Shown here piece by piece: positions 6,054 to 60,687 of a DNA stretch of 64,000 bases (position 1 is the stretch's first letter; each line of letters begins with the position of its first letter). Origin of the DNA: Moniliella sp. 'wahieum' (lineage: Eukaryota); the NCBI GenBank assembly GCA_003971905.1, contig RSEE01000002.1, forward strand, positions 558,001 through 622,000, given 5' to 3'. Under the pieces are notes generated by a model, which was not told where the DNA came from, searched no databases, and saw only the letters and a list, made by a program, of their open reading frames with translations. Made by a program: the position numbers and the translations under genes.

Positions 6054-8756
6054 GGGCACTCACGCCAGACAGAGGCGTGAGCGGAGGAGGACAATGTCAA
6101 TGGCGACGGCGATGATGACGACGTCGACGATGCAGATGATGGTCCATGACCTGCAGGGTAGTGGGGCAACCTTACGCAAGCCATCAGTGACGGGTGATGT
6201 GTGATGTGTGATGAGCGCTGAGCGTTGGCGACGTGGGACGGAGGCCTGGTCCGTGCACGCACCTATCCAGCTGGACTCATCCACGTTTCCTGTCTACCGC
6301 GAGCAGGCAGAAGGGCGGGGCGACGGGCTTCACCACCAATAATGAGGGCGATGCGATGGACCCAGCTAATGGTTCCAGCTATCGACAATAGAGATGGCAC
6401 TGGGGAAGCTACTACGGTGTTTAGGCCCGCTGGTCTTTTCCGAGAGGCCGGAGAAGAGGATTGGAAGGCGGATGGACGGGCGGATTGGGGGACACCGGCG
6501 CCGCCCACCACACGGCATAGAGGGTTAAGGCTCAGGATCGCTAGCGAAGGTCAGCTATCAGATCCAGAACTACTCCTGCAGCAAGTCCAGCGAGCTGCGC
6601 TGTCGTGTTGACGAAGGCGCTCTTGGTTCCTTCCTGCGCAGTGTCCTTCATCCAAGTTATGCCGCAAGAAGAACACAGAGACGTATCCGGTAGGGGAAGT
6701 TGAGGAAAGCTTGTCCCTCCTCAACCACTTTCGTACCGTCAAGCACATGCGTCACGCTGGTAGAGGATGCAAAAACTTCTGGGTAGTCTCTTTTTGTACA
6801 AGCCCACCTAGACAATCCACCGTCCCTCTTGGTGGGCACCACACCCCAGACGTCTGGCAAAGCAGGAAAAGCCAGCGCATCCCCAGATCTATCGGTGCCA
6901 AGTGGCAGCCGGCTTCAAGCTGGGATTCCAAACGGAGGAGACGCGCCCAGGGAATCCCACATCTCTTCTGCAAAGCGAACGCAACGTGTAATAGCTTCTC
7001 CCGATGGTGTTCGCCACTCTTCTGCCACAGGTACAGTCCATGTCGCATCCATTTCTCCCGCCCCTCAGTACTGAGACTCAGTAAACTGAGTACTCAATGG
7101 AGTCCGACTCCTAGTTACCTTCCGGAGTTCAGTTGTCGAGGGTACATCTCGTTGTGGGGGGTGACCCGATGACGAGGGCCGAGGCAGTGAGGACAGCAGG
7201 GCGGGTGAAGGCACAGCGGGTGCGGGGCGACGTTGGTGGAAGCAGAAGAACGAGGCAAGTGTTTGAGAAGGTGGTATGGCGAGGACGCCTGAAGTGGCAG
7301 GAGGCGCTCGGGGCTGGAGGATGGAGACGGCTGGCCCTGTGCCTGTCGGCTGTCACATGTCACATGCATCACATGTGATGGCATGTGTCGCATGGATGTC
7401 ACATGTCACATGTCACTCTCAAGCTCCAAGGTACTCACTTTGTATTGAGTACGGAGCGAGTAGCGAGTACGTATAGTAATGAGCTAGTGAGCACGAAGTA
7501 CCGAGCACACTGGGTGGCTAGAGAACTGGCGTGCTAGGCGCTGGGCGCAAGTGAGCTAGTGAAGCTAGTGAGAGTGACTCGTATTTTTAAGCGGTGGCCG
7601 GTGGCAAGGGACATGGTGTGGGATGGCTGCGGAGCACGTGCGCTTTGGTACTGGGACGCAGTACTCAGTGGTAGACGGATGGACAGCAGTCTGGATTTTC
7701 CCAGCTCCATTGCCCATCGGACGGGGCCAGACTGGGCCAGAACCCTAGGACTACTATGATATATGACGCCCGCTCCCATGGGGTCTGGTAGGATCTGCGG
7801 CAAGCGTCAAGCTTCACTACTTTCGCTCTGCTTTACTAGTTACTAGTTACTAGTTACTTCGCTTCGGGTCTGCTTCCGGTCTGGTCCGACCTGGGTCAGT
7901 ACTGAACCTCAGTCTGCTGTGCCCTGCGTTGCGGCATCGATGACTTGGCTAGTTCAGACCGATATGTGCCCTCTGATGCAGAGGTACACCCTTGTATACC
8001 CTTGTCTGCCCCCTTGTACTGCCTGTGCCAAGAGCGAGGTGTGTTGCCAGCAGTGCGCCAGTATGGCCGCTCCAAGCTCCATCCCCCTTTGTCCAGCCCC
8101 AGAAGCCAGAAGAGCCCCGGCGGCGGCGTGGGGAACGGGGGCGGAGGATGCTAGTTGCTAGATATATAGATGCTAGGTATTCTAAGAGTCGCTAGTTGCC
8201 GGCTGCCGGATACCATATGTACTCGCTTCCCCGAGTGCCCAGTCCCAGTGCCGTTGAGTACCTGACGCGTCACGCATCACGGTTCAGGCAGAGTACGTAG
8301 CGTAGGCTCTTCGGTACCTGGCCAGCGAGGCGTCGCTACACCGAGCACTCAGTACTCCGTTGGTACTCATACTCTTCAACGTACTCACCCGCCTCGCGGC
8401 CGCGTAGGCTCCATATAAGCTTCACACGCCCCCAGGCCCCCCCGTCCTGGAGCACTCGCCCGGCGCCATGGAGATAGCTTGCGATAGCTCGCCTACCTCG
8501 TGGGGGCCTGAGTGCAGCAATCGGATCGTGCCCAGTATGTATCAACCAACAGTAATACAGTAGCTGCCCTGACCACCAGGCCTCAGACCGGAGCCTCAGG
8601 CCGCAGGCCCGCCGCTCCATTCAACGTATCGCCGTTGCCGGCATCCGTCCTCTTGTCACGCTCGCCACCACCTTCTTGCCCCCCCCCCAACCTCACCGGT
8701 CATCTGGGCGCTCATCCCCACTTCCGCCTCTCCCCCCAATCCAATCCAAGACTTAC

Positions 8757-27140: not shown

Positions 27141-28997
27141 AGAGAGTTATCTATCGACTATCCATGCAGCTGGCATCCTTCGCAGCCCGCTCAATATGGG
27201 CGCATGGGTACTGTTATGCATTATGGGGCGCTCCGGTCATCGATCATCTCTCTCCGGACACCGAGCCCCACATGTCGTATAGAACCCTCATCGACGCACA
27301 CGCCATTCCCACGACTGTGAGTAAGAGCCAGCACGGACGACTTGCCACGGATGTTTTCCGCGGAGTGCCAGGAGAGGACCGGACTTAACGGTACGAAGCT
27401 TCGTATCCGCGGGGCATCCGGTCTTGATAGAACTCCACATCGACTGCGGCACACCGGCTCGCAGTCTGGACAGAACATGCCGCCCTTTGCCGTTTACTAC
27501 TGTAGATTCCCCTTCCTTCTGTTGACGCCTGTTGTGATGTTACGATATATAAGCAGTCCGGTCTGAGGCTTGCTGGCGGTGATCCTCACCGCCCAACCCC
27601 GTCAACCCCCGTCTCTATACTCCCGACTTCCCTCTTCACTCTTCACCCTTATACGCTTACGAATTTACGCCTTACGTCGAGCACTCTGCAAGTCGCGGTT
27701 ACTATCAGTAGCGCTTGCTCTTCTTTAGGACTCTATCTGTCCCCGCCAACTATAGCGTACCAACAAGTGTGGTAACGCCGCGAGGAACGGAGTAATTCCC
27801 GAGATCCTGGACCCTGCAATTGGTCTTACGACTTGCGAACACGGCTCCTACCTCGGAGGGTCTGAGCTGCGGCCTTTGCACGCAGGCAGCCACCCAAACT
27901 AGAGGGTCTCTCCCTTGCCTCTACACCCGCTCGGTTCAACCAGGATCTGAAGCAGGACCTAACGTACGTAACTCTAATGCCATGTCCAAGGGCTTTCACC
28001 CCTAAATGCCTGGGTCGAGCTCCGTCTCGGGGCTCGCCCCATGTGCATGACATTTGTAGGGTAAAAATCTTCCTCGTAATAGTGTGGGAGTTTTTGTAGG
28101 TGCGCGAATACCCTGCACTTAAGGGATCCCGCACTAGGACAGTCGGGGTGACACCGTAGGAGGAAAGCTTCCTGGTCACAGCCCCCTGCGAACCCTCTGC
28201 CGTACGGGTGTGGGGCGCAGCTGGAAACGCTCCTGTATTCGCTCTTCCTCGACTCGGTTCTCGCTTGCAGCCGTCGGCTGGGCCATTACACACAGGATTC
28301 ATCGATTCATCCTCCGCTCGCAGGTCACTAGGGTCACTGTCGCACTCTGGTCCGCATATATCCTCCCAACCCTGATTGCAGCCCGCGCGGCACAGTTCCA
28401 TACTACATAACCGCGCGCAGACATGAAGGCCATGTGCTCACTGCTCATTTCTGTGCCACTGGTTGTTCAGTGTTCAACCTTCAGTCCTCTTCGCCACCAC
28501 CTCTCCTCCCTCCTCCCCCCTTCTTCCCCTTCTTCTCGCTCACCTCGTTACTTGATTATTACTCGTTGATCGTCTGTGGTTTTGAGAATAAGTATCTCCA
28601 GGTCAGAACCTTCAAGCTTCACGCGTCGCGACACGGTATTCACTTTGAGGAAGGGTTCAAATCCACGTTGGTCGGAACCGATGCAACTGGGGAGTTATAT
28701 AGTCGATCAGGCTAACCCGTAGGTGGGGAGGCGTGAATTAATCGATAATAGTACTAGGTGAAGAGGGAACGACCGTACGTATGCTTGGGGTTTTCGCGCT
28801 CCTGCGGCTAGGCGTTGCATTCCCTTGGCGCAGCTGGGATGCGTTGCTGTCATTCGCCTCTATGCGCGAGCTCACACAAGAGCATGATATGAGCGGGACA
28901 GCGAAGAAAGGAGCACTTGATAACCTGCGAGTCGGAACGGTGTTGGGACAACGACCTCTGATAGTATAAATGCAAGCTCAACTCACAATCACTGTGA

Positions 28998-29045
28998 TTC
29001 ACCACCACCACCACCAACACCAACAACAACAACAACAACAAGAAC
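28998..29045 (+). repeat. (CAC)n/(CAA)n microsatellite upstream of the OPT start
   Basis: caccaccaccaccaccaacaccaacaacaacaacaacaac is seen directly. Confidence 0.9.
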
Positions 29046-29095
29046 ACCGAGAGCACTAACACCAACACAACAAGCAAAACAAAAGGCTAGACATC

Positions 29096-31837
29096 ATGTC
29101 GACTCCTCGTTCGAACGGGCTCAACGAAGCAGATGGGGAACGGACCGACCCACTGTCCAAAGACTCAGGCCTTCCGTCCACGCCGGATGCCATCGACTCT
29201 CTTCAGCCCTCACAAGTGATAGCATAGCCTCAACAAATCACGCGACGTACAAGAACACTACCCCGTTTTCGTTCAAAAACACAGTCGAGCACGACAACGA
29301 GAATGGGATGGAAACAGAGTCACTCTTGGAAAACACGCTCTATCACAACGACCGACTGCTGAATCCACATGATGAACCCTCTGCGACACGACCCGCGACA
29401 AACGAAACCGAGGATCGGGCCAGTGGGGTGAAGGCGCCAACAATGGATATGAAAACGACACAGACGAAGAGAAGGTTCTGGACTTGGCTGATGCGCGGGT
29501 GCGCGCAATTGTGCCTAACGAAGACGACCCAGATATGCCATGCAACACGATCCGCACCTGGCTGCTTTCCATGATCCTGGCCCTCGGCCTCACCACCGCC
29601 CTCATGGCTATGGAGATCCGAGGAGACTCGACCGAACCACAGACCTTTGTGTCTACAAGTGCGGTGTTGGTACAGCCATTCACCTACTGTTTGGGTTTCG
29701 CGCTATCGAAAATACCGTACCCATCGCATTGGCCCCTGGCTTGGTTCCTCAACCCGGGCCCATTTAACCTCAAGGAACATGCGTGCGTTCCAACTTCCGG
29801 GAAGTTGCGGTTGCTGTGAAAGAGATATCTGGCTGACACGTGTGATTCTTTCGCGCAAGATCTGCACCATCGTCGCTGCGATTGCCATGGGCCCCAACCT
29901 AACCTTGCAATCCTTGGCCGGAATGTCTCAATTGACGAATGGTCAATGGACGACGGATGGCACACAAAAAGAGACCAGATTCCCACCCGGCTTCCTCTTT
30001 CTCATTTACCTCTCGACCCCATTCTTGGATTTGCCTTGGCCGGTCTTGCCACGTCTTCTCATTTGGCCTGGTGAGTTGATTTATCCTCAGCAGCTTCAGA
30101 CCAGTGCAATGTTGACGGCCTTACACGGGGTTCGGCGTGGCAACTGGAACCGTCGTCTCGTCTTCTGGATTGTGGCGACGGTCATGTTCTTCTGGCACTG
30201 GATCCCGCTATTTTTCTATCAACCTATGGCAAGGTTCGAGTGGCCGACGTGGATGGCTCCGTCCAACTTTGTGGTCAATCTATTGTTTGATTCAAAGGGT
30301 GGCATGGGCTGGTCTTTTGGTCCCTGGACTGGACTACAGTGATCACAGCGTTGAATTCACCCTTGATCGTACCGTGGGGCGCGCTGGTCAACGTATTTTG
30401 TGGCTTCGCTGTTGCCATGTGGGTCATTGCCCTCCCGATCTTTTCACTAACAAGAACCTAGCGGCCTGCATTCCCTACGCGGTTATGAACGTGATTTGGT
30501 ACCCACGGCTGCATGCCACCGACATGCATATCAACCCCTTGCCCCAAGACATGAATCTAGATCTCTCCCAATTTGATTCGCCCGACCCACCCCAGGGCTA
30601 CTTTTCTGCCACACGTCATGTCCTGGGCGTTTTCCTATGCTGCCTGCACCGCCTTGCTCGTGCACACCGCTTTTCCTGGCGGCGACCTACGCCGCTGGTG
30701 GAAAGTGTCCAAGGTAGCTGATTCTCCTGATCCCCACGCCCGCCAACTCGCCCGCTACCCGGCTGTTCCCACCTGGTGGTACCTGTGTTTATTTCTGGTT
30801 GCCTTTCTTTGCCATCCCCATGGTGCACGTGTACCACACCTCGGTACCGGTTTGGGCGATTGTGCTTGCCCTCGCGCTGGCTGCAATCTTCATTGTTCCA
30901 GTGGGCATTGCATTGGTCGGACGTCGGTGGAGCTGAAGTGTGGAGCCCTTGGCGACGTTGATTGCTAGTGCTTCTCTGCCTGGGCACACGACCATCCCCG
31001 CTCTTTCAGATATGCTGCGGGGGAAGCATCACACAAGCGATGCTCTACTGTGGCTGCTCCAAACTGGCAGTCTACTTAAGATCCCACCACGAACCACCTT
31101 CTTTGTAATCGTGGGAACCCAATTGGCCTGCTCAGTGTTGCAAAGTGGAATCTGGGTGGGGTGGAGTGATGCGCTGCAAATCAGCATCATTACCAAAGCG
31201 CGGGTTGTAGGTTTGTACGATCCCATATATTGGACTGGCGTCGGGCTTCACAAGAACGGCTTCCTGCATCAATACCAGTGGACTTTGTACTTTTTCCTTA
31301 TTGGCGCAGTCGCGCCACTGCTCTTGTACCTTGTCGGACGCATGTCCCCTCGCTTGAATCACTTTGCTCACCTCCGCTCGCTCCATTGGCCGCTCTTCTT
31401 TGGTGGTGTATCGCAAGTCTCACTTTATTCACGATTTGCTGGACCGCTGGTTTTTGGGGGGCTGTCACTCACCTACTGTTCTCCCGTCGTCGGCAGTGAA
31501 TTATGGATTGCAGTACGTCCACTACTCTATCTTTCCTTTGTATTGTTCACGGGATGAATGTGGCTAACTCTCTTCTCTAACAAAATCTCTGGATCGGCTA
31601 TCGCCAGGATGAATTACGTTCTCTCTGCCGCCGCTTCTGTGGGAAGTTCGCTTGTTCAACCATCATCGCGGCCATGGAGTATAGTACGGATGACACTGAC
31701 ACCCGCTTTTCCCGCTTCGTCAACCACCTGAACAACCTTGGGCCCCAGAACGACTACGGCGATACCCTGGAAAAACTCTGGTCTGGAACGACACGCTTTT
31801 TCCCAACAGGAACGCGCCTCCCAACGCGGTCTAGTTG
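29096..31837 (+). CDS. Oligopeptide transporter (OPT family), divergent copy
   Basis: VRAIVPNEDDPDMPCNTIRTW, NPGPFNLKEH, LIWPGELIYPQ.L, DPHARQLARYPAVPTWWYL, KIPPRTTF and HWPLFFG. It has introns and several frameshifts, so both ends are approximate. Confidence 0.85.
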
Positions 31838-33208: not shown

Positions 33209-35981
33209 CGAGCAGGACTCCCTCTCTACTGATGAACGTGATGCCTTTTTATCGATTATCGCAGGAGCGCGATTTCTTCCCCGCTAAGGCGGACAAACTA
33301 GCCAACTAGAATGCAGAGAACCCAAACCGACTTCATCGGGCTGTAAGCTGTACCATTCTACACACAATCTCCTACCCCCATGGTTTCATAAGAACCAATA
33401 ATAGCGAGACGTTTCTCATCGCTTTGGCGCGGCATGATGCATGAAGTCGTTTCCCAGCGATAAGAAAGACCATGACCGAGCATGACGACGTGCGCACAAA
33501 ACATAATACATGTGTCTCTTACATACGGCAATGGTCTGTCCATGTTACATGTTATGAGAAACGCCAGCACAACTCACAACTCATCGATGCTCAACAAGTA
33601 CTTAGGAACTCACACTGGTTCGAAATGATTGCGCTTGCCGATGAGCGGGGCAACTTCACTGTCGGATCAACGTTCAACCGAGAGCATCGCTAACCAGAGG
33701 GTCTCACGAGCGAGAAAACGTGTCGGGTTGTTTGATCGAGGAGCGCCACATCCTTGCTGAACGTTGAACACTGGGATGCCCTCGTCCTAGACCGCGGCAG
33801 AAACATCTCATCGAAAAAACCACGCTGTCGCTGCGGCATTTGTTGGCCCGCGTATTCTCCACGGTGCCGAAGGAAGACAACTGGCGAGCATATATATGCC
33901 TTGGGTCTGCAACATCAGTGCCAGGTACACTCAAGTCGTACTCAGTACAGTACTGCCGCCCTCAAAACCCTCCTGTTTGAGCGCAACGTGTGCTGGGTCT
34001 GTTTCACTGCGACCATTTAGCGCTTAGCTACGCTCTCAAAACGTCTCAAAAGATTCAAGGTGCGAGTCAACGGGTGACTCGTGTGCGGACTCGGTACTGA
34101 ACTCAGTACACTCACTGTCCTATCCCTCACGCGTCATATATTGGCACGTCTTGAATTCAGTTGTCGGCTTCAACACATCGATCGATCATTGGTATCAGAT
34201 AATCCCCCCGTCCAATTGCGCGGGTGCGGTATCTTCCCGCCTTCTTCCCCGCAGTACAACCGGATGGCCGCCTTTCGTTTTAGTGGAGACGTCCAAGCCG
34301 GCCTCGTTCGACCTCCGAGCCGACTCTTCCGACCCCCGACTCGGAGGACGAGCACGGTAACCGAGGTAAGGCCCACCGACCGGGCCTCACCACCGTCTTG
34401 ACTACTTGTGCGGACACCAGCAGTGGTTTCCCTGCGGGTTTTCCCTGCTGCCGGCGTAGGTACCGCCCGCGTCACGCGGGGCTGCACAGGGTGGCGGTTG
34501 TCGGCCCCGCGCTTACGGTTTCGCGATGCCTGTGATCATCGATCATCATCTTTCCACGAAAAGCACTGACGCTCTAACTCCAGTATGGTGGGATTCCCAG
34601 AGCCGCACGCGCTCTTCTTAGTTCCCTCGTTCCCTCATTTACCGCCGGCAGTCCACGCACATCACTCGTTTTGTTTCCAGAATTAGGCGTGCAATACGCG
34701 TGCATGCGTGCGTCGTTGGGTTTAGTGCGTGCCCTCTCCTTTCCGGAATAGCAGACGTTAGTAGTAGGCGTTAGAAAAGTTTTGAATCTCTCCTCGCTTG
34801 TTGCTTAGTATGCTCCGACCCCACCCTTTTCGTTTCGGCAGCTTTACGCGACCGAGTTCCATCCAGATAAGAGCCGGGGCCGAAAAAGCAGCGCACGGAT
34901 CACCTCGGTCGGATTACGGAGGAGGCTTTCGAAGCGACCATCGCTGCACACTGAGGTTGCAAAGATAAGGCCTAAGATGGAAGAGAACGTGTTTCGCTTC
35001 CACAAACGGCGTACATATGTGGATTTAGTTTGTTCAACGTTCCGATCGTTCGGCTCGATGAGCCACAGCCAGTGGAGCCAGCCTGACATGGTTGTCTAAT
35101 CAGGGAGACAGAGGGGAAGTGGGTGGGGGCGGCTTTGGGGGTTGCCCGCCCGCCTTTGGCCTGTCGGAGCTGGGCGGCCCTGGTCCGATACGCCCACGGC
35201 TCTTCCCACGAGGTTGGTGGGGCCGCTGACGAGCTGGCACGGCACACTAGTTCCGTGCCAAGCATAGTGTCACCCTTTCTTCCGCCTCGTCCGAATGCGG
35301 TGGCGGAGGGGGGGCTGGTCAAGCTCAACTCATGGTGGGGCCAGCGGCATCACGCACCGAAGTGCTCGTGTACGTGTATCCGCCGGACGTGGCCTCGGCT
35401 AGGAGGCGCCTTGGCCAGGGCTCTGAACTCTGAACGCATACATGTCGGTCGTTCTCTTGGGATAGCTGATAGCCTTGCGGGCGGGGAAGCCGGCAGTGGC
35501 GGAGCGCTGACGTGGCGCTGCGGGCTGTCACATCATGGACGTGTCCTGTCATGTGATGCCTGTCACATGTGCGTCACAGGGGACGCCCCCTGTCACACTT
35601 CAGTATGAAGCGGAAGCTTGAAGCTTGAAGCTTGATAGCCACCCGCTCAGCCCGGCGTCGCACCGGGGCGCATCCCGCGCACCAGGCACCCCCTGGCAGC
35701 ATCCCCCACCCCCTGGCAGCGCAGCAAAAATGATCGATGGGAGAGGGACCGATTAGGGAACTGGCGACTGCTTGGGCGTAACGCGTAATTAGGCCTTACC
35801 CGCAGCTCGCCGCTGTCTCGCATCTGCTCTGAAATTTCAACCGGACGCCGTGCTGGGCCTCCGCCACACCCGCCTGTCTGCCTTTTTCGGTCTGCCTGCG
35901 CGTCTGCTTCCCTGCCTTGGCTCGCCGCCCCGCCTCCTCCCGTCTCCCACAGCCGCCCCTCTGCGGCTGCCCACCACCGCC

Positions 35982-41400: not shown

Positions 41401-42308
41401 GGCCGATGGTACCCTGGTTCCGGGGTTCCGCGGTCCCGTACGTGTTGTGGACGAGAGCAAGTTCCAGACAGTGGGGTTGGCGAGCCGGGTGCGCGGGAGC
41501 AAAACCAGTTGGGAAATCACCGAGTTGCCCGTCCACAAGTGGACAGCGACTTACAAGGCGTGGCTGGATGGCCAATTGGTCTTGGCGGATCCGTGGTTGA
41601 AAGATTACCAAGAGTACCACACCGAGTCGCACGTCAAGTTTGTCCTCCACCTCACGCCGAGCGGGGTGAAGGCCTTGGCCCGATCAACCTCGCCCGAAAC
41701 GTTTTTCAAGTTGGTTTCGAACCATTCGACCAACAATATGGTCCTGTTCAGTCCTTCGGGGCGAATTGCTCGGTACCAGTCGCCACTGGACATTCTGCAC
41801 GATTTCTTTGGAGTGCGACTGACGTTTTACCAGCGACGCAAGACGTACCTTGTGCAGCGGCTCGGAGCTGAGGTGGCACGACTGGAAATGCAAGCGCGCT
41901 TTGTTCAGCAGGTGGCCGACGGGCAACTGCAAGTTTCCGGACGGAAACACGAGGCCGTGGTAGCCGACTTGAGCCAGCGTGGGTTCTCTCCCGAAGCACC
42001 CAGCTACCCGGAAGGGGAGAGCAAGCGTACGCGCGCAGCAGCCAAGCGTTTGACTATCTGTTGAACATGCCGCTGCGCTCGCTGACGCAGGAAAGGTGGC
42101 GCGGCTGCAGGAGCAGTGGCGGAGAAGCAGGCGTTGGCTGCGCAACTGGAGGCGACCTCGCCCGAGGATATGGCGGACCGACCTGGGCGAGCTGCGCACT
42201 GGTGCGCACTGCTGCGACAGGACTTGGAGCAAAACTAGCACAATGGATGCAAGCAGAATGGTGCTGGCTATGAGCGTGTGCCTTGATAGGAGATGGAGAT
42301 GGAGATGA
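38474..42308 (+). CDS. TOP2: DNA topoisomerase II (type IIA), short form without C-terminal domain; introns 39882-39986 and 40520-40623
   Basis: YRRLSQHQHILQRPD, DEILVNAADNK, TSSNYDD, GGRNGFGAKL, TEGDSA, PLRGK, MTDQDHDG, YYK|GLGTS, RSIPSLVDGLKPGQRK, YHHGE, catalytic RYIFT, GIGTGWST and IWRTDL. The stop position is uncertain. Confidence 0.93.
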
Positions 42309-42376
42309 GATGGAGATGGAGATGGATGGAGATGGAGATGGAGATGGAGATGGAGATGGAGATGGAGATGGAGATG
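42290..42376 (+). repeat. (GAGATG)n hexanucleotide microsatellite
   Basis: About 14 near-perfect GAGATG units. Confidence 0.95.
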
Positions 42377-42824
42377 GGGAGGATAACAAGGGGCGATGGT
42401 TGGGTAGGCCAGGAGAGAAAGGAGAATATACTCGCTGGCTGGCGTGTGGAGACGCATGCATGCATGCGTGTGGGCAGGGTCTGGCCGGAGCTTAAGCAGG
42501 CTTAGACAGGCGCAGTGCCCATCGCGTGGGCCCTCTCTTCCCTCGGCCCAGACACTGCCCCAGCGCCCCCGCCGCTGCCCGCATGTAGTAATGCCTGGCC
42601 TCGCTACCGTCGTCTGCGAACGGTGCCTCCCATCTCGCCAGTCTTGCTCCGGCCGTGTACGGTTCTGCTCGCTACTACAGCCTCTCTCGCACCCACCCCC
42701 GTCTCTCTGCCCCTCCTTCCATCCTCCAAGCGTCTTTGCGCAGTCGCAACGCCTCCCTTCTGCACTCCCCACGGCGCCGCGGTTCCTCTTCTCTGCCCCA
42801 CCCCCACACACCACACCACCGGCC

Positions 42825-44675: not shown

Positions 44676-45939
44676 GACTTGACTGAGGTACGCTGGCCCT
44701 TTGCGATTGCCACTTTTCCCCGGCTTTTGTCTTCATTCTTTCTTCGCCCATTGCTCTTCCACGAGCAGTACCTTACAAAAGAGTGTCTCCTTTTTACATT
44801 GCTGTCGGCACTGTGCGCTACATTCATATTATCCTGTCGTCCTATCGTACCATGACTCTGTCGGCTTCGTCCAGCACGTACTACTACGCACTGTATGTTG
44901 TGACCAAATCGAAGACTGACTCCCCGCCGCCTGCTTATCTGCATGCGGTTTCTTTCTTTCGGGTGCACGCATAACTGCATACCGGTAGCTTAACTGGCGC
45001 GGTAACAATTTCCCCGTGCTTGACCGTTTTGACCACATCGCCTTCATCGTTTTGTTCTTTCACTTGTCCCTTGTCTTTTGCCTTTTGCTGTGTTACTGTG
45101 TACTTTCTGTCGAAAAACTAAAAAAAAAACTTGTGACTATATCCATAATTCTCTCGCGCCCTTACTCTTCCTCCCTTCGGGTCCTTACGCTCCATGCGAT
45201 ATACTTTTCAATTGTATCGCCCTAATATGGGCCTATTATGTTGTCTCATGGCCTCCTCACACCTCGTATTTGGGCCTGCTCGACACGTCGAGAGCAATGA
45301 AGGTACTGTAGAACTGGGTGCAGACTAACTTAGTACAGCGCACATTCTCCACTCACCATACTCTCAACAGTTAACCGCGGTTTGGCCTGTGGAACCCAAA
45401 GACCACACCTTGTCTTCTCCCCTCTCTGGGGCCACACAAGTATCCACAACACATATTCATAGTAAGTTGTCTAGATACCAATTTTTGGTACAAACCCCGA
45501 AGTGAGGTTACTGTTTTGGGGGCACTTTTTGAACGTCCAAGGTGAAAAGTAGAGGGCGACATGAGGATCCTAAGCTGCCAAGCGTGTGCTGGCTCTCTTG
45601 CTAGAACCAGTGGTGGGTTCGGTCGTACCTCTCCAAAGGCCCAAACGTGGCCTTAAGGCCTCATGGCCGTCATTGCCCTCATGGCCTCAATGGCACTTTC
45701 GGAACTCGGGAAGATCGATGATCGATGATCGATAATCGATAATCGATGATCATACAAGCTGGATTAGGTATTTGGTCGACCAGTCGCGGATCACGTGATC
45801 TGACGATGACCTGGAGGAGCGGAGTTTGCCCTTCTCTTTTCCGCCTGATTGTTGAGGCTGGTTTTTGGGCGATTGGAGAGCGCGTTCGGCTAGGTCAAGC
45901 AAGTGGTGCGACGCCACCATCGATTTGTGGATTGGAGTG

Positions 45940-48483: not shown

Positions 48484-51127
48484 TCAGCTCGATCCCGACG
48501 AAGCAATTGGGTTGGGCAGCCACAGGCCATTGGGCGCCGGCGCAAAGCCATTGGGAGGAATATCCTTCATGGTGAGGATTCCGGAGCCCTGCAGGTTGTT
48601 GGTTCCACCTTGTTGCCCCACCACAAGTTTTCACCGTTGAAGGGATTGTCAACAGCGAGGAGGCGCGTGTTGGGTACCTCAAGAATAAGTGAGATGAGGA
48701 ACGACATGATCGCTGCACCGCAGTCAAAGCCGGCAGAGATAATATAGTTGTAGTCGGTCCAGAACTCGAAGTAGTGGTGACGGAGGAAGTACTGGAAGAA
48801 CCAGCCGACAAGGAACCAGGAAGTAAAGTTGATTCCAGTCGCAGGAGGCATCATACCCGTCGCAGAGAAGAAGACGGGCCAATTGATGAGACGGACCCAC
48901 GAGTTGGGGTACTTCTTGGCCAAGTACCACGTCGGCACAGGAATTACAGCGCCAACGATGAACATGATGTCAGAGCACCGTACGTCTGCCCTACAGCAAA
49001 CGTCCGGGCGGGTCCGATAAGGCCCCAAATAATACTCGCTTTAAACGAAATAGAGTCAGCATCAGAGTCTAGTCAGGTAAACAAGAAGAGGAGAAACGTA
49101 CCCGAGTAGAAAGTGTGTTGGTACTGGCACGTAAAATGCGCGGGGCTGATCTTTTCGTTGGGGTTGGCACCGCAGAGGTTGTGAGTGGAGCCAAAGAGGA
49201 AAGCAGTGACAGCAACTTGCACCAGGCAGGCCCAGATGGTGGAAATCATCTGGCCCCAGAACATGTCGCGAGGTGGGACCTTCATGTAATGACCCAACTT
49301 CAGATCCTGAACAAACGTAACAGCTTGGGCCATGGAAATGTAGCCAAATGTCTTGAAAATCATCATGGCCACCGGCTTGCCGGGATGGCGTACCCGACAA
49401 TCATTTCACTAATGACGTTGAGACCTGGTTCGTTGGCCGTCACAGCGACAATGATACCGATAGGAATCGTGTAGAGGGCACTCATAAGGATGGCAATGAT
49501 GAACATCCAAATAGGCAGCTGGGTCTTGTAAACGTAAATGGCAGGGATGGCCATCGCAAACGAGGCCAAGAAGGTAGCCAAGTACCACAGGTATGGCACC
49601 TCCTTGTAGCGCGACATGAGACGAGCGTGAATGTCAGGCTCTTCGTGCAGAGAGCGCTTAACTTGCTGGACAATCTGAGGGCCATAGTACAAGGCGACGT
49701 GACTCAGAGTCGATGTGATGGCCCCAAAACCAACACAGTAGCTAATGATGAACGTCTGGTGTTACACCTTGTCAGTGATAATTCGCTACGGAGGGAAAAA
49801 TTACATACGGCACTGAGGTACTCCTTCGAGTAACTGTCGTAGGCGGTTTGATCCAACACATAGTCGGGAGTAACCACATGGCTGACGGAGTAAGGCTGAC
49901 CGAAACGGTCGAAAATGCCGGAGTCAGAGAAGGTGAGGTAGCCCGTGTACTTGGTGTTCGTTGCCCACATGATGGGTGCCACGAAAGCAATGATGATTAG
50001 GTAGCCCACCATGGTGTTAGCAATAGCAAACCATGGCACAAAGATGGGGGATCCAAGGCCACTGATAACCTGCAGCCAATCGAGAGAGATCACGTTGAAG
50101 CCAATGCCACCAGAACCACCAAAGACGAGGTTGACGCCCTTGTTCTTGGGTGCAGCCCAAGCCGGCCATGAGAAGACCGATAGTCCAGTAAAGAGGTACG
50201 AGGGAACAATCTCCCACACAAACATGAACAATGCCGTGACGGAGAACATCTTGAAACGAGACCAACCACGGAAACTCCCGATCTTCTTGTTCTCATGCAT
50301 CGACGTAAGGAACGCCGTGTTGGTCAAGTTGGCAGGCCAAATCATGGACGCAGGCCACACCAAAACCTGACGGCAGAAGCCTGCATAGGAGAAGCCAATG
50401 AGTTGGGTCGAAAGCGTGAGGAGAATCATGTACCCAGCGGTAATGTGTTGACCGTAGTAAGCGTGCTGGGTAATGAAAATGTCGGTGGAGTATGCCGACC
50501 CCACTCCGACGGTGGCCATGACAGTAATCATGGTGTGCTCTTTAATTTGAACGGGCCAGGGTTGAACCAGTCAGCGAGTGGCCAGTTGCGCGGGTAAGGG
50601 ATCTTGGCCATGGCGACACCAATGGGATAAGCAAACAGTTGCACTGCAATGGACGGGAATGTAACCATAGGCCACTGTGGGAACGAGAGGTACAACCATT
50701 AGCAGTGCCCAGTGAGCAAATGCATGACACAATGAAGACGTACCTGGGCAGAGAAGTACATGTTGATACCACTAAGCACCGTGCAGGCAATCATGCCCAT
50801 GGACCATGAGCGGAACGTGTTGGCCTTCATGGTGGGGTCATCGATATTGCTGACGGCGGCACGAACTTCAGGGTAGATGGAATCGTCGCCGATTACATCC
50901 TCAAGACGCAGTTCGGCCTTCTGGTCCCCCTTGTGCAGCGCCTGGTCAGCCTCGTGCAGCAGGGCTGGGTCCAGGTTGGGATCGTTGATGCGGCCGCTGG
51001 TGATCTCATGACGGATGTCGTTCTCAATAGCACCAAAAGCAGCTTCGTGGTCTAGGACATAGGCGGGCTCTTGGACGTCAGGCGCAAGGTCCTTCGTCAC
51101 GTCCTCCTTCTCCAAAGGGCTAGCCAT
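48484..51127 (-). CDS. Oligopeptide transporter (OPT family, Isp4/Opt-like), multi-exon
   Basis: DSIYPEVRAAVSNIDDP..ANTFRSW, NPGPF..KEHTMITVMA, LVWPASMIWPANL, DIHARLMSRYKEVP, NEPGLNVISE, DLKLGHYMKVPPR and YNYIISAGFDCG. Confidence 0.93.
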
Positions 51128-51249: not shown

Positions 51250-54200
51250 CCTAGTGGCTCGTCACGCGTTAGTAACTCGATAATCGATCATTGATAATCG
51301 ATAACGGCGGTGGCGTGGAGGATAATCGAGAGATACTCAGTACTCAGTGCCAGACAGGCCCCATCCCTCGGGCCCAGCACGCACTGCGCCACTGTGTGTG
51401 CATCCAGCGTACGATGGCGGGGGCGTCACACGTCACATGTCACACCAGGAACAACACCAGGGTGGGGTGCCCGGGTGCCCGAGTGGCTGCTTGATGCATG
51501 ATTGTCGAGTACTTCGAGGAGCTCAAGTGACTCCATACCGGTGCTGCCGAGCCGCCGCCTGCCGCCGAGCCGCCGAACCGAGCACACTCAGATTCACGTC
51601 GAACGTACTTGATTGAGGCGTTGAAGGATCATCGGTCAGCGCTCAGCTCTCCGTTTCTCTCGGCTCGGCAAACCCCAGGCGGATCTGCCGGTGCTTCTCA
51701 AGCAGTGCTGCCACTAACGCGCTAACATGTAACACAAGAGGACGGCCAGATGATAGTTGGACCCTGCCAATGTGAAGACCACGTGGATTTGTACTTGGGG
51801 CCATCTCTCCTGGTCTTTGTCCCTCGACGGGCCTGGACCTGATCGAGCTTGAAGCTTGAAGCTTGATCGATGATCTCCCCAGCAGCCACTGGCCCTGCCT
51901 TTTGGCCTGTTTGGTCCGCTCCAAACTTCAAAAGCTCCAGCTTCACATGTTGCACCACGGGCCTTCCCCAGTGTTGAGTGAATTGAGTGTACTATCTTGT
52001 ACCTCCTTCCACAAACGTACTGAGTATTATCGGTATTCAACGTACTCAACGTTCAACACACCACATTAAGTACGTTCGGTACGTTGAACGTTGAACGTAC
52101 TTGTCAGCCGGTGTACCTGGATATCGCTAGCTCCTGGCTTGTGTGTCGATACGTTACGCGTATTAGCCAGCCATTCTTATCGACAAGTGATATTCCGATT
52201 ACCGATTATCTCGGTTTGATAGGAAAGAAAGAAAACGTTTAGACAAAAAGTACGTATACGCGACAATGGCGGCTGGCGCTATGCGAAGAGATGCGCTGAC
52301 TGATGCCAAGAACCATCACATGCATCACCATCAATTCGAACAGCTTTCGAAGTGCTATGGGTCAATGACCACGCATCATGCATCATGCATCATGCATCAT
52401 GGGGCTTTTCCCAGGCTTCCCCACAGGCTCCCCCACAGATATTGACACGAGCATCCCGGGCACCCCATAGTATCCAGAACAAAAAAGGAAGAAAATGGGT
52501 ATGCTATGTGCCGATACCCCGAGAACCGTTTTTTTGCCGTGGGGTAGTTCGATGGCATACGTCCTCACATGCCTCACAGTCATGAAGCTGTGCGGTATAA
52601 TTGAACAGGGAGAAGTCACCCAGCCTTAGGCCTTAGGCCTTACTGCTTGCATCTTAGAGCAGTGACTAGTGACTGGTGATGCATGATGGTTAGACGCTAG
52701 ACCTTCGACCTTAGGCCTTAGGGCCTTAGGCCTTAATGAAGCTTGAAGCTTGAAGCTTGAAGCTTGAAGCGCTTGAAGCTTGAAGAGAGCACGCACAGCA
52801 GCATAATCATTAATCACCAATCATTGATCATGATGCATGATGAATGAACGCGTGAACCGGCCCGAGGCTGAGCTCCTGAGGGCCTGAGGGCCTGAGCCCT
52901 GAGCCCTGAGCGCCTGAGCCCTCGCCGTTCCCGCACACCGTCAGGCCTCCAGCCCCTCACCCTCACCCGACCGCTGACCCACTGAGCTTATCGCTTATCT
53001 GCCGCATGCCAAGAGCTCAAGAACGTGCTCGCACTCTCAGTCTTTCAGACCTCAGCACTGGCACACTGACGACGCGCGCGCGGAGAGCCTCTAGAGGCTC
53101 AGGCTGAGCAGTACGACTAGTAGGACTAGTAGTAGGTCGATCGCAGGGTTATTCGGTTCTATCAACGCGCGCTCAGCCACTCCGCGCTGTTTGTCGCGCT
53201 CATGGAAATCGTTCAATTTGCAGCGCAAATATAGACAGAGATATAGACAGAGATAGCATCGATTACTTTCGTTACTCCAAGAGACTCCGACATCCTCGCT
53301 GCTACTCCCTACTGCTCGCTGCTACCACTCTGACTGACGGCAAGGATGCATGATGTGTGATGAGCATGTGAGACGAAGTCATCGATGCCTTTTCCCGTTC
53401 CCCGCTCTGTCATGCACATGCATGTCACATGTCACATGGCTGTAGGTGGCAGTCATCGAAGTCACTAGTCATCGATCACCACGTCGTAACAGGATCATCG
53501 ATCAGGCCTCTGAAGCTTGAAGCTTGAAGCTTGAAGCTCGATCTGAAGGGCCTACGCGCTTACGCGCCTACGGTCGATCTGTGGCAATGACAACATGTGA
53601 CCATGTGGCCCCTGAAACCCTGTCTCAGACCCTGAGGCGACACTATGCGGGGGAGACGAGGGACAGGCATATTGCACCCAGCCGAAAGAGCAGCAGCTTT
53701 TGTCCAAGTGTTGGGGCACCGTTGGGACCTGTTTATGGTTTTGCCCGACGGACTCGCATGCCAACTAACGCGGCCTCAGGCCTCAGGCCTGATTATTTCC
53801 CTGGGTTCCCCTAAGGCCTAAGGCCCAAGTGCCGGAGCCTCAAGCCTAAAAGAGGTCCTGAGGAATCATCGAATCACTAATATACTCGCAAGCCTCGTCA
53901 CGCGTCAGGGCAGCCTAATTACTCTATGGCTTTTTCCTGATTCCACACGTCCTCGCGTTCTCCCCATCACCTTATCGAGCGCTTGAAAAGCTCTTGAAGC
54001 TTAGCTTGAAGCTTGAGCTTGAGGAGATTGAAGCTTCAAGCTTCAAGCACACCCCTGAGCCTGAGGCCTGACGAAGGCGTAGGCACCGTGACGCGTGATG
54101 CGAGCATTATGGTGCATGAGATCGTGAGAGAGAAAACCAAATTAATCTCTCCTCCCCCTCTCTCTCTTTCCTCCGAAGACCGGTTCCATCCGTCATTTTA

Positions 54201-54380
54201 CCAAATCTCTGTCGAGACTGAGGACTGAGTTCATCAGTGTTCGGTACTGAGGGGCGCGAGGCTCAGCTCAGGCCTGAGGTACCGAACGGTCCTGAAGCAC
54301 CGGGACATCAGGATTCAATTGAATATTCATGTGAGCCGCTGAGGAAGGACAGTTGCATGATGCATTATGACGCGTGATGC
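51250..54380. repeat. Dense cluster of 7-bp-period palindromic micro-arrays (A-NNNN-T + 1 nt)
   Basis: (AAGCTTG)4 at 52739-52765, (ATGCATC)3 at 52378-52397, AGGCCT-T/C arrays at ~52628, ~52713 and ~53772, AACGTT-G at ~52080, ACATGT-C at ~53420, and mixed ACTAGT-C-ATCGAT at 53464-53476. Confidence 0.85.
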
Positions 54381-57300
54381 GGAACCATATGCACAGATGA
54401 CCTGGGCGCGCGTTACACGCTTGGCAGGCACGCTGTTGAGAATTGATATGTATAGTCTTCCCCCAATCAGCCTGTTTACGTGTTACAAGAAAGCGTGGTA
54501 GCTCCAAACTTTTCCATCCGTTCTTAAAGAGAGAAAGTTTGGACTACGAGAGGCAAACACGCGTGGTGCAACTTTTTTGCGAACGAATACCCCACAATAT
54601 GCCTCCTTTTTGTAAAAAAGAGAAACAAGGCCTACAGAGAGAGAGAGAGAGAGAGGAGGAGGGGGTGATGGATCTAGATTGATCTATTCACAGAGAGGAG
54701 CCCGTTAGGGACAGAACATAGAGGAGAGTCGGATACATAGAGAACAGTGCCATGTGTGATGTGTGATCGGCTGCGTGTTGCATGCCTTCGTTCCCGAGTC
54801 GCTACTGGAGTGTATGGTCCCCCTCCACTCCGCCGCTACAGGAGTAATAGCCCCTCCCTCGCACATTTGCACCCTGCCCGCCGTGTGCTCCATTACATAT
54901 TCCCCCGTGGTACTCTTGATTAATGATTCGTACGCATCCGATGTTCACGTTCATGGCTGTGTTCACGGACTGTAAGAGAGGACTGGGGTGGGAGACGACA
55001 CGACCACGCCTTTTCTCGTTCTGTGACGGGAGTTGTGATATTTAGTCTGACCTTGGCGCCTTCGTCTATACTGTACCTTTTTGGCTTCCACTAATATTTG
55101 GCCGCTTCCGAGGCGGAGAAGTGACTGTCGTTAGGGAGAAGGTGCCTGATTCGCCTACTTCTTGTTGGTTGAGCTGTGTGGGTGCCATCTTGTCGTTACT
55201 CCCCCGAAACACCCTTGATTTCTGTACGACTCGGCTGTGTGACCTTATATCTCTACTCGCATTCTCGTACTATTCTTCAAGTCAAGCTATATTGGCCGTC
55301 ACCGTCATATGAACAACCTCATATCGCATCGCGAGAGGTCCAAGGCCTTGGGATTGAGAAGCCGACTTTGGTGCACACCATCACTACTAAAGTATCGATT
55401 ATCGGCTATCGGAATGTGCCTCGTGGAGTGTCCTGAGAAGGCTGGACTTTGATTGGACACTTTTAGGGGAGAGGCTAGTACGTGGCCCACAACGGTGGTA
55501 TTTGTCCCTCGCCAAACAGTTGCACTGGTAACGCGGTAACGAGAGAGGAGGGAACTGCTCGCGGAGTTGCAGAGTTCAATCTGAATTTACCTTTGTAAGT
55601 ATATATGTCAGTGAGCTCAAAGTTAGCGATAGAGATGGCAGATAATCACGATAAGCATATGTACCTCACTGAACGCAGCCGTGCTCAAAGTGTTTTTGTG
55701 TTCGTTGCACTTCTTGACTTGAGTTCAAGTTTTGGAGGATAGTTCAAAGTTCGTACCAGCACTCTCTCCATGTTCATTTACCTCTTCAACGTACTGGTTT
55801 ACACTTCCAACCTCACAAGCGCTGTGGATAGGGACCCTGGGGATCCACACGAAAGTGGGTAGGATGATATATACCCCTTATTCGTTTCAACATAGGAGAG
55901 GCCGTGGAGGGAACTTGACGTGCCTTAGTACTTGTGGGAGTGTAAGTGGACAGTTACATCCTCCTAGGAGAAAGAGGGATTGATCAACAACGCTTGTTAA
56001 CCGAATCGCTCACTTTCCACGAGTCTCCGCTTCACGGCGCGGATTCAGTAGCAGAACCTCTCAAACAGAGAGGAAGGCGCACAGCATTTCCGATTACACC
56101 GTATATGTCTCCCCTTCAAACGGAATGGAACGTAGCAGAGGGGAGAGTATCTATGACGGTGCTGCACACAAAAGGAGATTCACACACCTCTTATTGTCTT
56201 ATCACAACTTTCCTGTTTATCGTCCAATTTCTGTTTATCGTCCAATTGCTATATTTGCTCGGCTTCAACTACTATGCGTTCATCGCACAATCTCTCTTCT
56301 CAGATCTCAACGTCCATCTCGCTTATCTTCCCCGACCTTATTTTCGCTCTATTCACTCTTTCGCCTCAGTCCTCCGGCTTCAAGCTTCATCTCTATACTG
56401 CATCCATATCATTGACAGAGCGTAAGGCTGCTGGGACAGGGAAACGCTACGCCTAAACCGAACCGTTCATCTTGCGTGAGTTATTTGGTAGCGCCACCAG
56501 TGTTAAGGAACCGGGGGATTACCAGGACATCAGGAACCCCTGGTGCTCGCTATTCGGTGCCGTACCCTATAGGTAGCGCGTGTGGACACGGATGAACGTG
56601 GTAGACATCTGAGCAAGGAACCATTTCCGTTGAGAGTCAGTAGAGCCGCATCTTGCCCGCTGTCTTGGTGCCGTAGTATTCTCGCGTAGTCAAACCAGGG
56701 GGGAAAACGGCTCTTGAGTGCGTCCCTGGTACTTGGCGTTCTTGTCGCATTCTGCTTGTTCCAGCAGCTGAAGGAGCTCCTTCTCCCGGCGTTCCAGGGG
56801 GTCGCGGTGCTCTCATGCACCACCCTCCGGTACGCACTCTGCATCTCCTGCGATCTCATGTCGCGCAACGCATGGTTCACCTCCATTCCTGATCCTCCGA
56901 TTGATCCAGGCTCCATCGCGTGGTAGTTAGTACGCATTGCCTTCCTCCCGCACCTCATCCCATCATCGTTCTCCACAGTGAGCTCGTTGTGGATGTGTGT
57001 GTCGGGATTGACCGCACGAGCAGGAGAATGGGCTCCCGTACTGCCTCATTCTATGCACCAAACTTGGACTGGGTGCAGGTGCAGGCCATGATGCACTTAA
57101 GCGAGGGCATGACGCCACACTTGCACATACTGTGCACATGGCGCAGCACAGCGTGCGGAGTTGGAGACCAATCTGAACCCGCATGTCAGAGAGTCGGAGG
57201 CACGGGCGGATGGAATGGAGGAGAGCCACAATTGTGGCTCAGCGAGTTGCTACGCTCGACCACACGTTGCGACTATCGGCATCGTCAGGCTTCTGAAGCA

Positions 57301-59094: not shown

Positions 59095-60687
59095 TGTTGT
59101 GAAGAGTTGGTGGAGAGGTGAAGGGAAAGGGAGGACCGGTGGGTGGAGTGTAGGTGGGACGGAAAATAGGATGCGAGGTACAACAGAGCCCTTTTGTACC
59201 TCTGGCCATCCACGGGAAACAAGCCGGTGGGGGAGGGACGGGCGAGGGGGGCGCAATGGGACGCGCACGGACCCTCCACGGATCCAGCATATTGCCTGTG
59301 GGGAGGGTGGTCGACATGCCAGGTTCCAGCCCTATCGACTGTCTGCCCATCTGGGTGGAGCAAGGCACCAGTGAGACCCACAATCCCTGTGCATAGGTGT
59401 TGCAGGACTGTACACATGTAGGGTCGTGTATTAGTTGCCTGCGGTTTCCTGCGGCTGTGATCCGCAGCGACCACACCCGGCACGCCGCGCAGCAACGTGG
59501 CACGTGTCACAGAAGGCTCTGCCTTAATTTTCCTCTCGCAGGCGCCACCGCAAAGGCCTTCCATGGCGTTCGTTCCTTAATTCTTCCGGTGTCCAGCGCC
59601 TCCCAACACCCATCCATCGATCACGCGCAGGGGGGTGTCGCGCTTCAAGCTTCAGGCACATATGCAATCGTCATTAACATTGGTTCCATACGTTTCAGGC
59701 TCTCACCAAGCGTGCCTTCTCCGCTCTCACACGCGCACATCAGCCCACACACACCCGCGCAACAACCAACACATCAGTGCATCAGAAGGGTATGATCCCT
59801 GTTTCATGAAGCTTGTAAAACCCTCTGCCCAGTCCACCGTTTTCCACTTTGGTTCACCACCCCTTTGAGACGCAACCGTGTGTGGCACAATGCACGTGGC
59901 TTACACTGGCCGACGGAAAGGGGCATCCTATACCCGTTACAACCCACAGCGCACTGGGACTGTATCGAGTCTCCGCGCATTTTAATATGCACGAAGAGAG
60001 ACGTGTGGGAGCGCGCCCCCCACCGTGTTACTGAGTGTTACTCTAGTTACCTAGTTACCGGTTACCATTGACTAGTGACTATTGGCTTGAATTATAAGGT
60101 GTAACCGGTGGCTGGTGGCCGGTGGCCACAGAGGGAGATGCCGGGGACGCTGGTGGCGGCCACCACTTTCCATCCCGAACCCACCCTGAGATGCCTCTCC
60201 GGATGTGGCTCCGTGGGGAAAAGGCGCGGAGTGTGGCGCCGAAGCTTCCAGTGGGGAGTTTGGAGTGTTGGACGCGTTGCTCTACAATCTTTCAATTTGT
60301 GTATTGCACCGGTCAAGGCTCAGGGTGTTGAAGCCGACCGACGTTGCAGAAGACACAGCTGGTCACCACAGAGATCTTGCTATAATAATGGCTAGTTGAT
60401 TGAGCCACCGGCTGGCTCGTGCTTTGGCCAACGTCCCTCCAGTTCCTCCTCAGGCCTAGGAGCTCCGTTGTTTTCTCTCTGCTCCTCTTTTCCTTGTTCC
60501 ACAATTTAGCCCCTGGTGACGATTCGCTGCTTGATGTTCCACTGTAGGCGATTGCTGTTTGGCTTGGAGACTACCACGAACCACCGGTGCGATTGCATCA
60601 CCCTCAAGGGCCATCAGGCCTCAGGCCTCAGGACTTCAGGTCTCATCATCGTTCTACTGAGGATACACTGTGGTACCGACGAACAAT

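Follow-up and report, generated by a model that had tools for sequence, protein, structure and literature searches.

The noncoding DNA of a 64-kb stretch of contig RSEE01000002.1 from Moniliella sp. 'wahieum' (the whole stretch is called here the window) is interspersed with a 12-mer of the form T-N-A-x-y / y'-x' / T-N-A-x-y, in which a direct repeat of 5 nucleotides (nt) encloses an inverted copy of 2 nt. We propose that these units are scars of one stereotyped, lineage-specific templated insertion of 7 nt at T-N-A and not binding sites, a proposal to which we give about an even chance of being right. The grammar spans the whole window, and the block at 51250-54380, 5' of a gene for an OPT oligopeptide transporter, where an earlier inspection of the letters alone (the sequence-only reading) had noticed it, is just its densest part.

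A 12-mer anchored on T-N-A

The sequence-only reading described noncoding DNA full of hexameric palindromes that start with A, end with T and recur at 7-bp spacing, or, equivalently, a T-N-A triplet every 7 bp around a palindromic 4-mer, and both descriptions hold. Among the 1015 hexamer palindromes of the window (A..T 337, G..C 261, C..G 240, T..A 177) only those of the A..T class are periodic, forming 32 pairs at lag 7, none at lag 6, 3 at lag 8 and 16 at lag 14, while the other classes contribute 2 (C..G), 1 (G..C) and 0 (T..A) pairs at lag 7. There are 63 exact period-7 arrays with two or more copies, whereas dinucleotide-preserving shuffles, which served as the background, gave 3.1 on average and never more than 6 (20 shuffles for this count). 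The array unit is a 6-bp palindrome plus one base in 34 of the 63, and the bias towards A..T is again evident since 32 of these 34 belong to that class and two to G..C; as the spacer, these 34 have G 15 times, C 12 times, T 5 times and A twice. Counted by itself, the T-N-A triplet forms 233 pairs at lag 7, 148 at lag 6 and 92 at lag 8, and the 4-mer core is palindromic in 117 of the 233 T-N-A-N4-T-N-A units, compared with 3-7% in the 15 other X-N-Y classes and 5.8% for all 4-mers of the window. Both triplets share the middle base in 161 of these units; the repeated block, however, is 5 nt long and not 3. The 7-bp spacing of the earlier description is thereby retained, but its geometry of a hexamer plus any one base gives way to an elementary unit that is really the 12-mer T-N-A-x-y-y'-x'-T-N-A-x-y.

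In its perfect form the 12-mer occurs 115 times (both strands), compared with 0.6 or 0.0 times per shuffle, and these occurrences fall into 61 loci, most of which are minimal 12-mers (1.7 copies) and not arrays; they are about 200 times commoner than chance. Period-7 identity reaches at least 2 nt past T-N-A at one or both ends in 68 of 80 arrays, where chance would account for about 12%. If the boundaries are classed by the extension at either end, (0,2) and (2,0) together comprise 26 of the 80 arrays, the bare 10-mer (0,0) 7 and two full copies (2,2) 5, and the run length equals 5 modulo 7 in 28. One-sided extensions of exactly 2, 3, 4 and 5-6 nt are found in 30, 12, 6 and 3 arrays, respectively, as would be expected if the boundary lies at exactly 2 nt and the longer extensions are due to chance. 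The length of the inverted part is equally defined, with 115 matches at 2 nt, 82 at 0 nt (87.8 in shuffles), 6 at 1 nt (3.8 in shuffles), 2 at 3 nt and none at 4 nt.

The outer triplet is likewise specific, the same 12-mer built on C-N-G, G-N-C or A-N-T being found 5, 0 and 0 times, and all 15 other a-N-c classes together reach 38 against the 115 of T-N-A, several of the 38 being other phases of the same arrays. A mirror form, T-N-A-x-y-N'-A-T-N-A-x-y, gave 9 matches, all of them coinciding with the main form. Both strand orientations of the 12-mer are about equally represented (20 and 17), and no further conservation was seen in its flanks. At 53 of 65 loci the triplet has G or C in the middle, compared with 64% in the background, and 15 of the 16 palindromic cores are in use, their frequencies being 0 to 2.7 times those at which the matching T-N-A-x-y 5-mers are available. 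It is the relation between positions that is conserved, y'x' being complementary to xy and xy returning after the next T-N-A.

Imperfect relatives of the unit are also abundant, with 95 sites carrying one violation against 9.6 in shuffles, and the degenerate cores ttga, cacg, cgca and ccag are each one transition away from a palindrome. Many of the decayed cores differ by a CpG-to-TpG/CpA change (TCGA to ttga, CGCG to cgca, CCGG to ccag), a pattern consistent with CpG as a mutational hot spot in this DNA. When period-7 runs are left aside, neither A..T hexamer palindromes (172, compared with 149-220 in the other classes) nor 7-bp palindromes centred on T-N-A (5.6% against 5.9-7.7%) are in excess, so that palindrome and duplication would arise in one event, with no pool of precursors. 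With respect to open reading frames (ORFs) of at least 150 amino acids, 54 of the 12-mer loci lie outside (2.04 per kb) and 7 inside (0.19 per kb), an 11-fold lower density within ORFs that agrees with the noncoding setting reported before.

A candidate templated insertion of 7 nt

The covariation within the core and the use of 15 of the 16 cores argue for a copying process and not for a protein that reads sequence. In the event that we propose, T-N-A-x-y, with any xy, would be converted into T-N-A-x-y / y'-x' / T-N-A-x-y by the gain of exactly 7 nt. The added heptamer y'x'-TNA-xy, self-complementary except for its centre, would generate at once the A-xyy'x'-T hexamer, the single spacer and the 7-bp period. 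The route could be a very short double template switch, consisting of a forward copy, a turn-round for 2-3 nt and a resumption at T; equivalently, a break with a 5-nt overlap could pass through a hairpin intermediate and acquire two P-nucleotide-like bases. A feature of template switching is indeed present in the units, namely an insert with a reverse-complement copy of its neighbour followed by return to the original template. Repetition of the event at either copy, or across the same T-N-A, would yield arrays and mixed-core chains, and arrays would grow also by ordinary slippage aided by the hairpins of the units, point mutations then eroding them. One spacer base is kept throughout in 11 of 19 mixed-core chains, by our own reading of the chain list, and mixed cores that share a spacer (53462-53478; 51846-51875) would result because events occurred on both sides of one T-N-A. 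Since an insertion of 7 nt shifts the reading frame, the scars would persist only outside coding DNA, where they would be neutral. That the event is a gain of sequence we infer from the anatomy of the units alone.

The sequence-only reading had offered two explanations, a specific template-switch process and a protein reading the spacing and symmetry of T-N-A-N4-T-N-A. The former is favoured by the covarying cores and by the joint appearance of palindrome and duplication, and the latter is disfavoured because the identity of the core is free and single 12-mers occur at about 2 per kb across all non-ORF DNA.

Other ways of building the unit were tried and rejected. Duplication of a 7-bp target at a palindromic site predicts the class (2,2), to which only 5 of the 80 arrays belong. 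A 4-bp palindromic target with a T-S-A footprint (S being G or C) predicts mixed G and C spacers within arrays, and the spacers are homogeneous. If the inverted copy ran through T-N-A, the spacers should be complementary, as they are in just 6 12-mers, compared with 115 in which both spacers are the same. The lack of a palindrome excess outside period-7 runs rules out that palindromes already in place acted as precursors.

The boundaries of the arrays bear also on an origin as transposon footprints, in which a T-N-A target duplication of 3 bp (PIF/Harbinger-like) would be combined with 2 nt of each inverted terminal repeat left on excision (Tc1/mariner-like), successive cycles giving the arrays. 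The target format of PIF/Harbinger elements is precisely T-N-A with any middle base, a period of 3 + 4 = 7 fixed by the geometry of an enzyme would fit the strict stereotypy, and spacers are identical within chains even across different cores. In addition, the common cores here include GGCC, with which PIF/Harbinger elements usually end. Nevertheless, we regard this origin as distinctly unlikely. The footprint model predicts the bare 10-mer (0,0), but no more than 7 of the 80 arrays are of this class and in 68 of the 80 xy or y'x' recurs beyond T-N-A; the model fails for this outer xy because the ends of an element cannot depend on the flank. Moreover, 15 cores would require about 15 element families with different terminal dinucleotides. 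Inverted-repeat pairs with matching 3-bp flanks in the window (seed of 9 bp, 40-6000 bp apart) had T-N-A as the flank in 0 of 44 cases, Pfam families of transposases were absent from the 98 window ORFs of at least 150 amino acids, and no dispersed repeat families were seen in the window beyond the arrays.

According to PMC4561436, PIF/Harbinger transposases duplicate a 3-bp T-N-A target whose middle base is free, and their excision is as a rule precise, which also counts against footprints, while mariner-type footprints retain both duplications together with bases of the element end. According to the same source, the footprints of hAT (Ac/Ds), Tc1/mariner and PIF/Harbinger elements resemble the 12-mer in having a direct duplication around a few palindromic bases and a size fixed by the enzyme, but the duplicated block is of 8 (hAT), 2 (mariner) or 3 nt (PIF) and here of 5 nt. 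A hAT-like feature is present in that y'x', as the reverse complement of its neighbour xy, is derived from the flank; the inverted bases lie here only on the side away from T-N-A, whereas in hAT footprints palindromic bases are possible at both flanks.

Selection is a further explanation, with the units as protein-bound or structural arrays (a promoter, an origin or a chromatin organiser) or as three-frame stop barriers, for which TGA or TAA every 7 bp would provide a basis. The 4 kb upstream of the OPT gene are very densely populated, with 26 of the 61 loci situated at 50-56 kb; perfect copies outnumber those with one mismatch (115 against 95), which could reflect conservation; and the uneven use of cores and a change of 12-mer orientation near 53 kb would go along with a function. 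However, only T and A are fixed, and the core shows self-complementarity and repetition of an arbitrary xy, which proteins do not read. The flanks are unconserved and the loci are spread over all non-ORF stretches, a stem of 2-3 bp is too short for a stable structure at single 12-mers, and scans of the window with Rfam and for tRNAs returned no matches. A functional reading thus finds no positive support, and we hold it to be very unlikely.

The templated insertion has its own difficulties. A plain polymerase-error model predicts neither the fixed geometry nor the confinement to T-N-A with exclusion of C-N-G, G-N-C and A-N-T; the microhomology for the return switch is a single T; and the variable length and site with microhomology junctions that are usual for template switching are not found here. 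No pair of ancestral and derived sequences that would give the direction of the event was seen in the window, and the lone paralogous pair beside a 12-mer (at 26.7 and 56.4 kb) is unalignable beyond the junction. Core use is uneven (chi-square of about 36 on 15 degrees of freedom, calculated by hand), and the 12-mer density at 51-55 kb is about 5-fold above that of other non-ORF DNA, which makes a local or functional bias possible. Finally, all counts derive from one 64-kb window, and the coding mask, any ORF of at least 150 amino acids, is crude. All these points weigh against a templated insertion as formulated above.

Stochastic template switching normally yields a spread of lengths. The fixed length and the restriction to T-N-A, which template-switch models leave unexplained, look like the reach of an enzyme, and the strict geometry hints at one whose reach is fixed. 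To our knowledge, no eukaryotic enzymes other than PIF/Harbinger-type transposases, and nucleases that descend from these, have a target of T-N-A format. On this basis we put forward a more speculative and rather doubtful extension, in which a resident T-N-A-specific enzyme of fixed geometry would keep breaking or nicking the genome and each repair would write a 7-nt mini-hairpin unit, y'x'-TNA-xy. Such a process, if Lactarius-like contigs follow the same rule, would be shared across Basidiomycota; it would feed itself and build hairpin arrays de novo because each unit creates a new T-N-A. The dense zones would be the places where the enzyme acts, so that zones such as 51-55 kb would correspond to open chromatin, origins or recombination hotspots.

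Control DNA, related systems and significance

As control DNA we used metagenome contigs around the AAGCTTG array, which is the commonest of the window; they comprise at least 120 loci and 528 kb, with flanks for 80, and represent a sample and not a census. Among the matches listed, 12-mers with cores other than AGCT reach 0.034 per kb in the control against 1.33 per kb in the window, and the other period-7 arrays of the control have a palindrome-plus-one unit in 13 of 179 cases (A..T 3, C..G 5, G..C 4, T..A 1). The boundaries of the control AAGCTTG arrays are spread over the phases, with 13-29 per class in the 119 arrays among the matches listed. The grammar is therefore not a general property of DNA, and the control lacks it save in the Lactarius-like contigs described below.

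The control bears most directly on ordinary heptanucleotide microsatellites, that is, on slippage expanding any 7-mer, and hairpin formers best, with no founding event. This would suit arrays of up to 4.9 exact copies, palindromic units in 8 of the 9 arrays with at least three copies, and the presence of (TGAAGCT)n arrays in at least 120 unrelated metagenome contigs. It would suit as well the folding of the DNA, since palindromic arrays reach -6 to -11 kcal/mol as hairpins whose triloops are T-N-A whereas two of three non-palindromic 7-mer arrays barely fold (0 and -0.3 kcal/mol; the third, at 23889, reaches -4.1). Slippage cannot, however, found the minimal 12-mers that exceed chance so greatly and make up most loci. 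The hairpin argument would favour closing pairs of the G..C or C..G type, yet the palindromic units are nearly all A..T, and single-copy A..T palindromes are not in excess. The site rule is also contrary to slippage, as boundaries fall here at T and at the core centre and not over all phases as in the control, where, unlike in the window, the AAGCTTG array comes without multi-core company. Slippage as the sole origin appears to us unlikely.

By protein similarity the host is placed among the fungi of the Ustilaginomycotina, a carboxypeptidase ORF of the window having 65% identity to its counterpart in Tilletiaria anomala, the best match with a name, and 87% to another protein. Within the control, a contig of 12 kb (L038, WNGR01000687.1) carries AGATCT+G and ACCGGT+A units beside several AAGCTT arrays, and a helicase fragment on it is 84% identical to Lactarius proteins. 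It was grouped with four further contigs (L060, L021, L047 and L023; 35 kb for the five) by the two prefixes that their record names have in common, the likeness to Lactarius coming from L038 alone, and in the five together T-N-A is the outer triplet of 9 of 15 non-seed 12-mers. The remaining 493 kb of control hold only 7 non-seed T-N-A 12-mers among the matches listed, and several other classes are far commoner there. The rule may thus reach into Agaricomycetes at lower density, on the evidence of few loci. Taken by themselves, the Lactarius-like units (AGATCT+G, ACCGGT+A and the AAGCTT types) hint at a rule that extends beyond Ustilaginomycotina; if it is the same rule, the mutational system would be common to Basidiomycota.

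The occurrence of similar T-N-A units in these independent metagenome contigs speaks also against an assembly or sequencing artefact as the source of the grammar. As an artefact would in addition not avoid ORFs 11-fold, nor leave a series of point-mutated copies, nor obey a base-specific rule, we attach hardly any probability to it.

In kind, we class the units with templated small insertions or tandem repeats, but with an unusually exact rule. Heptamer repeats are known between the genes of bacteria, such as the short tandemly repeated repetitive (STRR) sequences of cyanobacteria, GGGAATC in Xanthomonas and TAACTGA in Beggiatoa. They share with the arrays described here the 7-nt period, the intergenic position and, often, the capacity to form hairpins; they are, however, prokaryotic, with one or a few fixed and mostly non-palindromic units whose hairpins come from inverted pairs of arrays, whereas here, in a eukaryote, each unit is palindromic, 15 cores are used and the T-N-A rule applies.

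In humans, small insertions that create pseudo-palindromes have been ascribed to a single template switch with immediate strand recovery (Montgomery et al. 2013, PMC3638132). Such insertions, of the type explained by forks that stall and switch templates (FoSTeS) or by break-induced replication through microhomology (MMBIR), are alike in that the insert is partly the reverse complement of its neighbour and a short palindrome appears in non-repetitive DNA; they vary in length and site, whereas here the length is always 7 nt (5 direct and 2 inverted) and the site always T-N-A. Unlike the human insertions, the units described here reach about 2 loci per kb of non-ORF DNA and seed arrays. The same direct / inverted / direct layout, arising from repair or replication, is found in yeast, where double-strand breaks acquire fold-back inverted insertions of 5-34 bp (Yu et al. 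2024, PMC11724301), and in small inverted triplications, about 150 bp in size, that are linked to FEN1 (Lei et al. 2026, PMC13334657). Both differ in using nearby microhomologies with no fixed site or size and in being described from mutants or cancers and not as a genome-wide germline class. No description of the present grammar was found in the literature searched, whose coverage leaves out most subscription journals; the TCACG/CGTGA motif of Ustilago maydis that the sequence-only reading had mentioned was not found there either.

If the templated insertion acts genome-wide, it would constitute a mutational signature of unusual exactness, with one site rule, one length and thousands of scars, and would suggest that basidiomycete fungi have an activity, in repair or linked to a transposase, that has not been described. 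It would show, too, how arrays capable of forming hairpins are founded from non-repetitive DNA, which bears on the birth of microsatellites. It would reshape promoters extensively: such repeats make up about a fifth of the 3 kb upstream of the transporter gene, and every unit contains a stop codon as well as a restriction-type palindrome. For practical purposes the loci could serve as dense strain markers, and their local density might report sites of breakage or of replication problems.

The block upstream of the OPT gene and other features

The ATG of the OPT gene, at position 51127 and belonging to an ORF at 50699..51127 on the minus strand, faces the block, and no ORF of at least 100 amino acids lies between 51181 and 55946. 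The block holds 68 T-N-A-N4-T-N-A units, 49 of them palindromic with 12 distinct cores, and period-7 runs of at least 12 bp occupy 21.7% of its bases compared with 4.4% of the window. Units such as TGA-AGCT, TCA-TGCA, TTA-GGCC, TCA-CATG and TGA-TCGA can be read there run upon run, and Tandem Repeats Finder reported many short period-7 arrays in the block and in other inter-ORF gaps. The more than a dozen arrays that had been claimed for the block are borne out by 17 exact arrays of the A..T type. All ten hexamers named at that time do occur in it, nine of them in the context T-N-hexamer-N-A; the tenth, ACCGGT, has this context only elsewhere in the window. The arrays that best illustrate the grammar are listed in Table 1.

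Table 1. The block, the adjacent transporter gene and representative arrays; positions are those of the window.
Feature	Position	Strand	Remarks
Block, densest zone of the grammar	51250..54380	.	5' of the minus-strand OPT gene
OPT oligopeptide transporter gene, split ORFs	48570..51127	-	PF03169, E 2.8e-61 and 3.1e-22
Longest array, (TGA-AGCT) x4.9	52737..52785	+	Followed by a period-9 variant, TGA-AGCGCT (52762-52779), and (TGA-AGCT) x2; DNA fold -11 kcal/mol with a T-G-A triloop
(TCA-TGCA) x4.1	52373..52401	+	Unit ATGCAT+C
(TGA-AGCT) x4.0	53511..53538	+	Fold -7.8 kcal/mol, z -3.85
Mixed chain TCA-CTAG-TCA-TCGA-TCA	53462..53478	+	Two palindromic cores around one spacer base
(AGCT-TGA) x3 straight into TCGA-TGA-TC	51846..51875	+	Two cores, every spacer G
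(TTA-GGCC) x2.9	52623..52642	+	Spacer T; more copies at 52709-52735
AAGCTT array	54003..54048	+	G spacers switch to C spacers, giving the perfect palindrome TTGAAGCTTCAA
Degenerate relative, periods 7 and 8	52868..52919	+	TGA followed by GGGCC, GCCC or GCGCC; period 8 with GGGCC or GCGCC
Rare relative with another period, GGGTGCCC x2	51465-51481		
TCA-CATG arrays	7351..7416	+	Outside the block, in another inter-ORF gap
(TTA-CTAG) x3.7	7833..7858	+	Length exactly 7k+5; begins at T, ends at the core centre
(TGA/TAA-TCGA) array	45713..45751	+	Mixed G and A spacers
(AAGCTT+G) x3.3	35613..35635	+	
(TCA-GGCC) x2.7	60614..60632	+	

By our own count of the one-sided 12-mers at 51290-56400, their orientation changes near 53 kb, from 6 plus and 3 minus on the left to 1 plus and 7 minus on the right; in these small numbers, the change could mark a divide of replication or transcription.

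The paralogous pair mentioned above consists of two blocks of 38 and 32 nt, 89% and 97% conserved, which lie at 26712-26787 and, inverted and 30 kb away, at 56390-56421 and 56798-56835. A gap of 7 nt separates them at the first locus and one of about 377 nt at the second, in surroundings that cannot be aligned, and they could represent a small RNA gene, with no match in Rfam, or tiny exons. A second OPT gene is located at 28924-31554 on the plus strand, less than 20 kb from the one at 48570-51127 and on the opposite strand to it. The top-scoring tandem repeat of the window is a hexamer array, (GGAGAT) x15, at 42289-42377, which overlaps ORFs on both strands within an ORF-dense stretch that holds a topoisomerase II gene.

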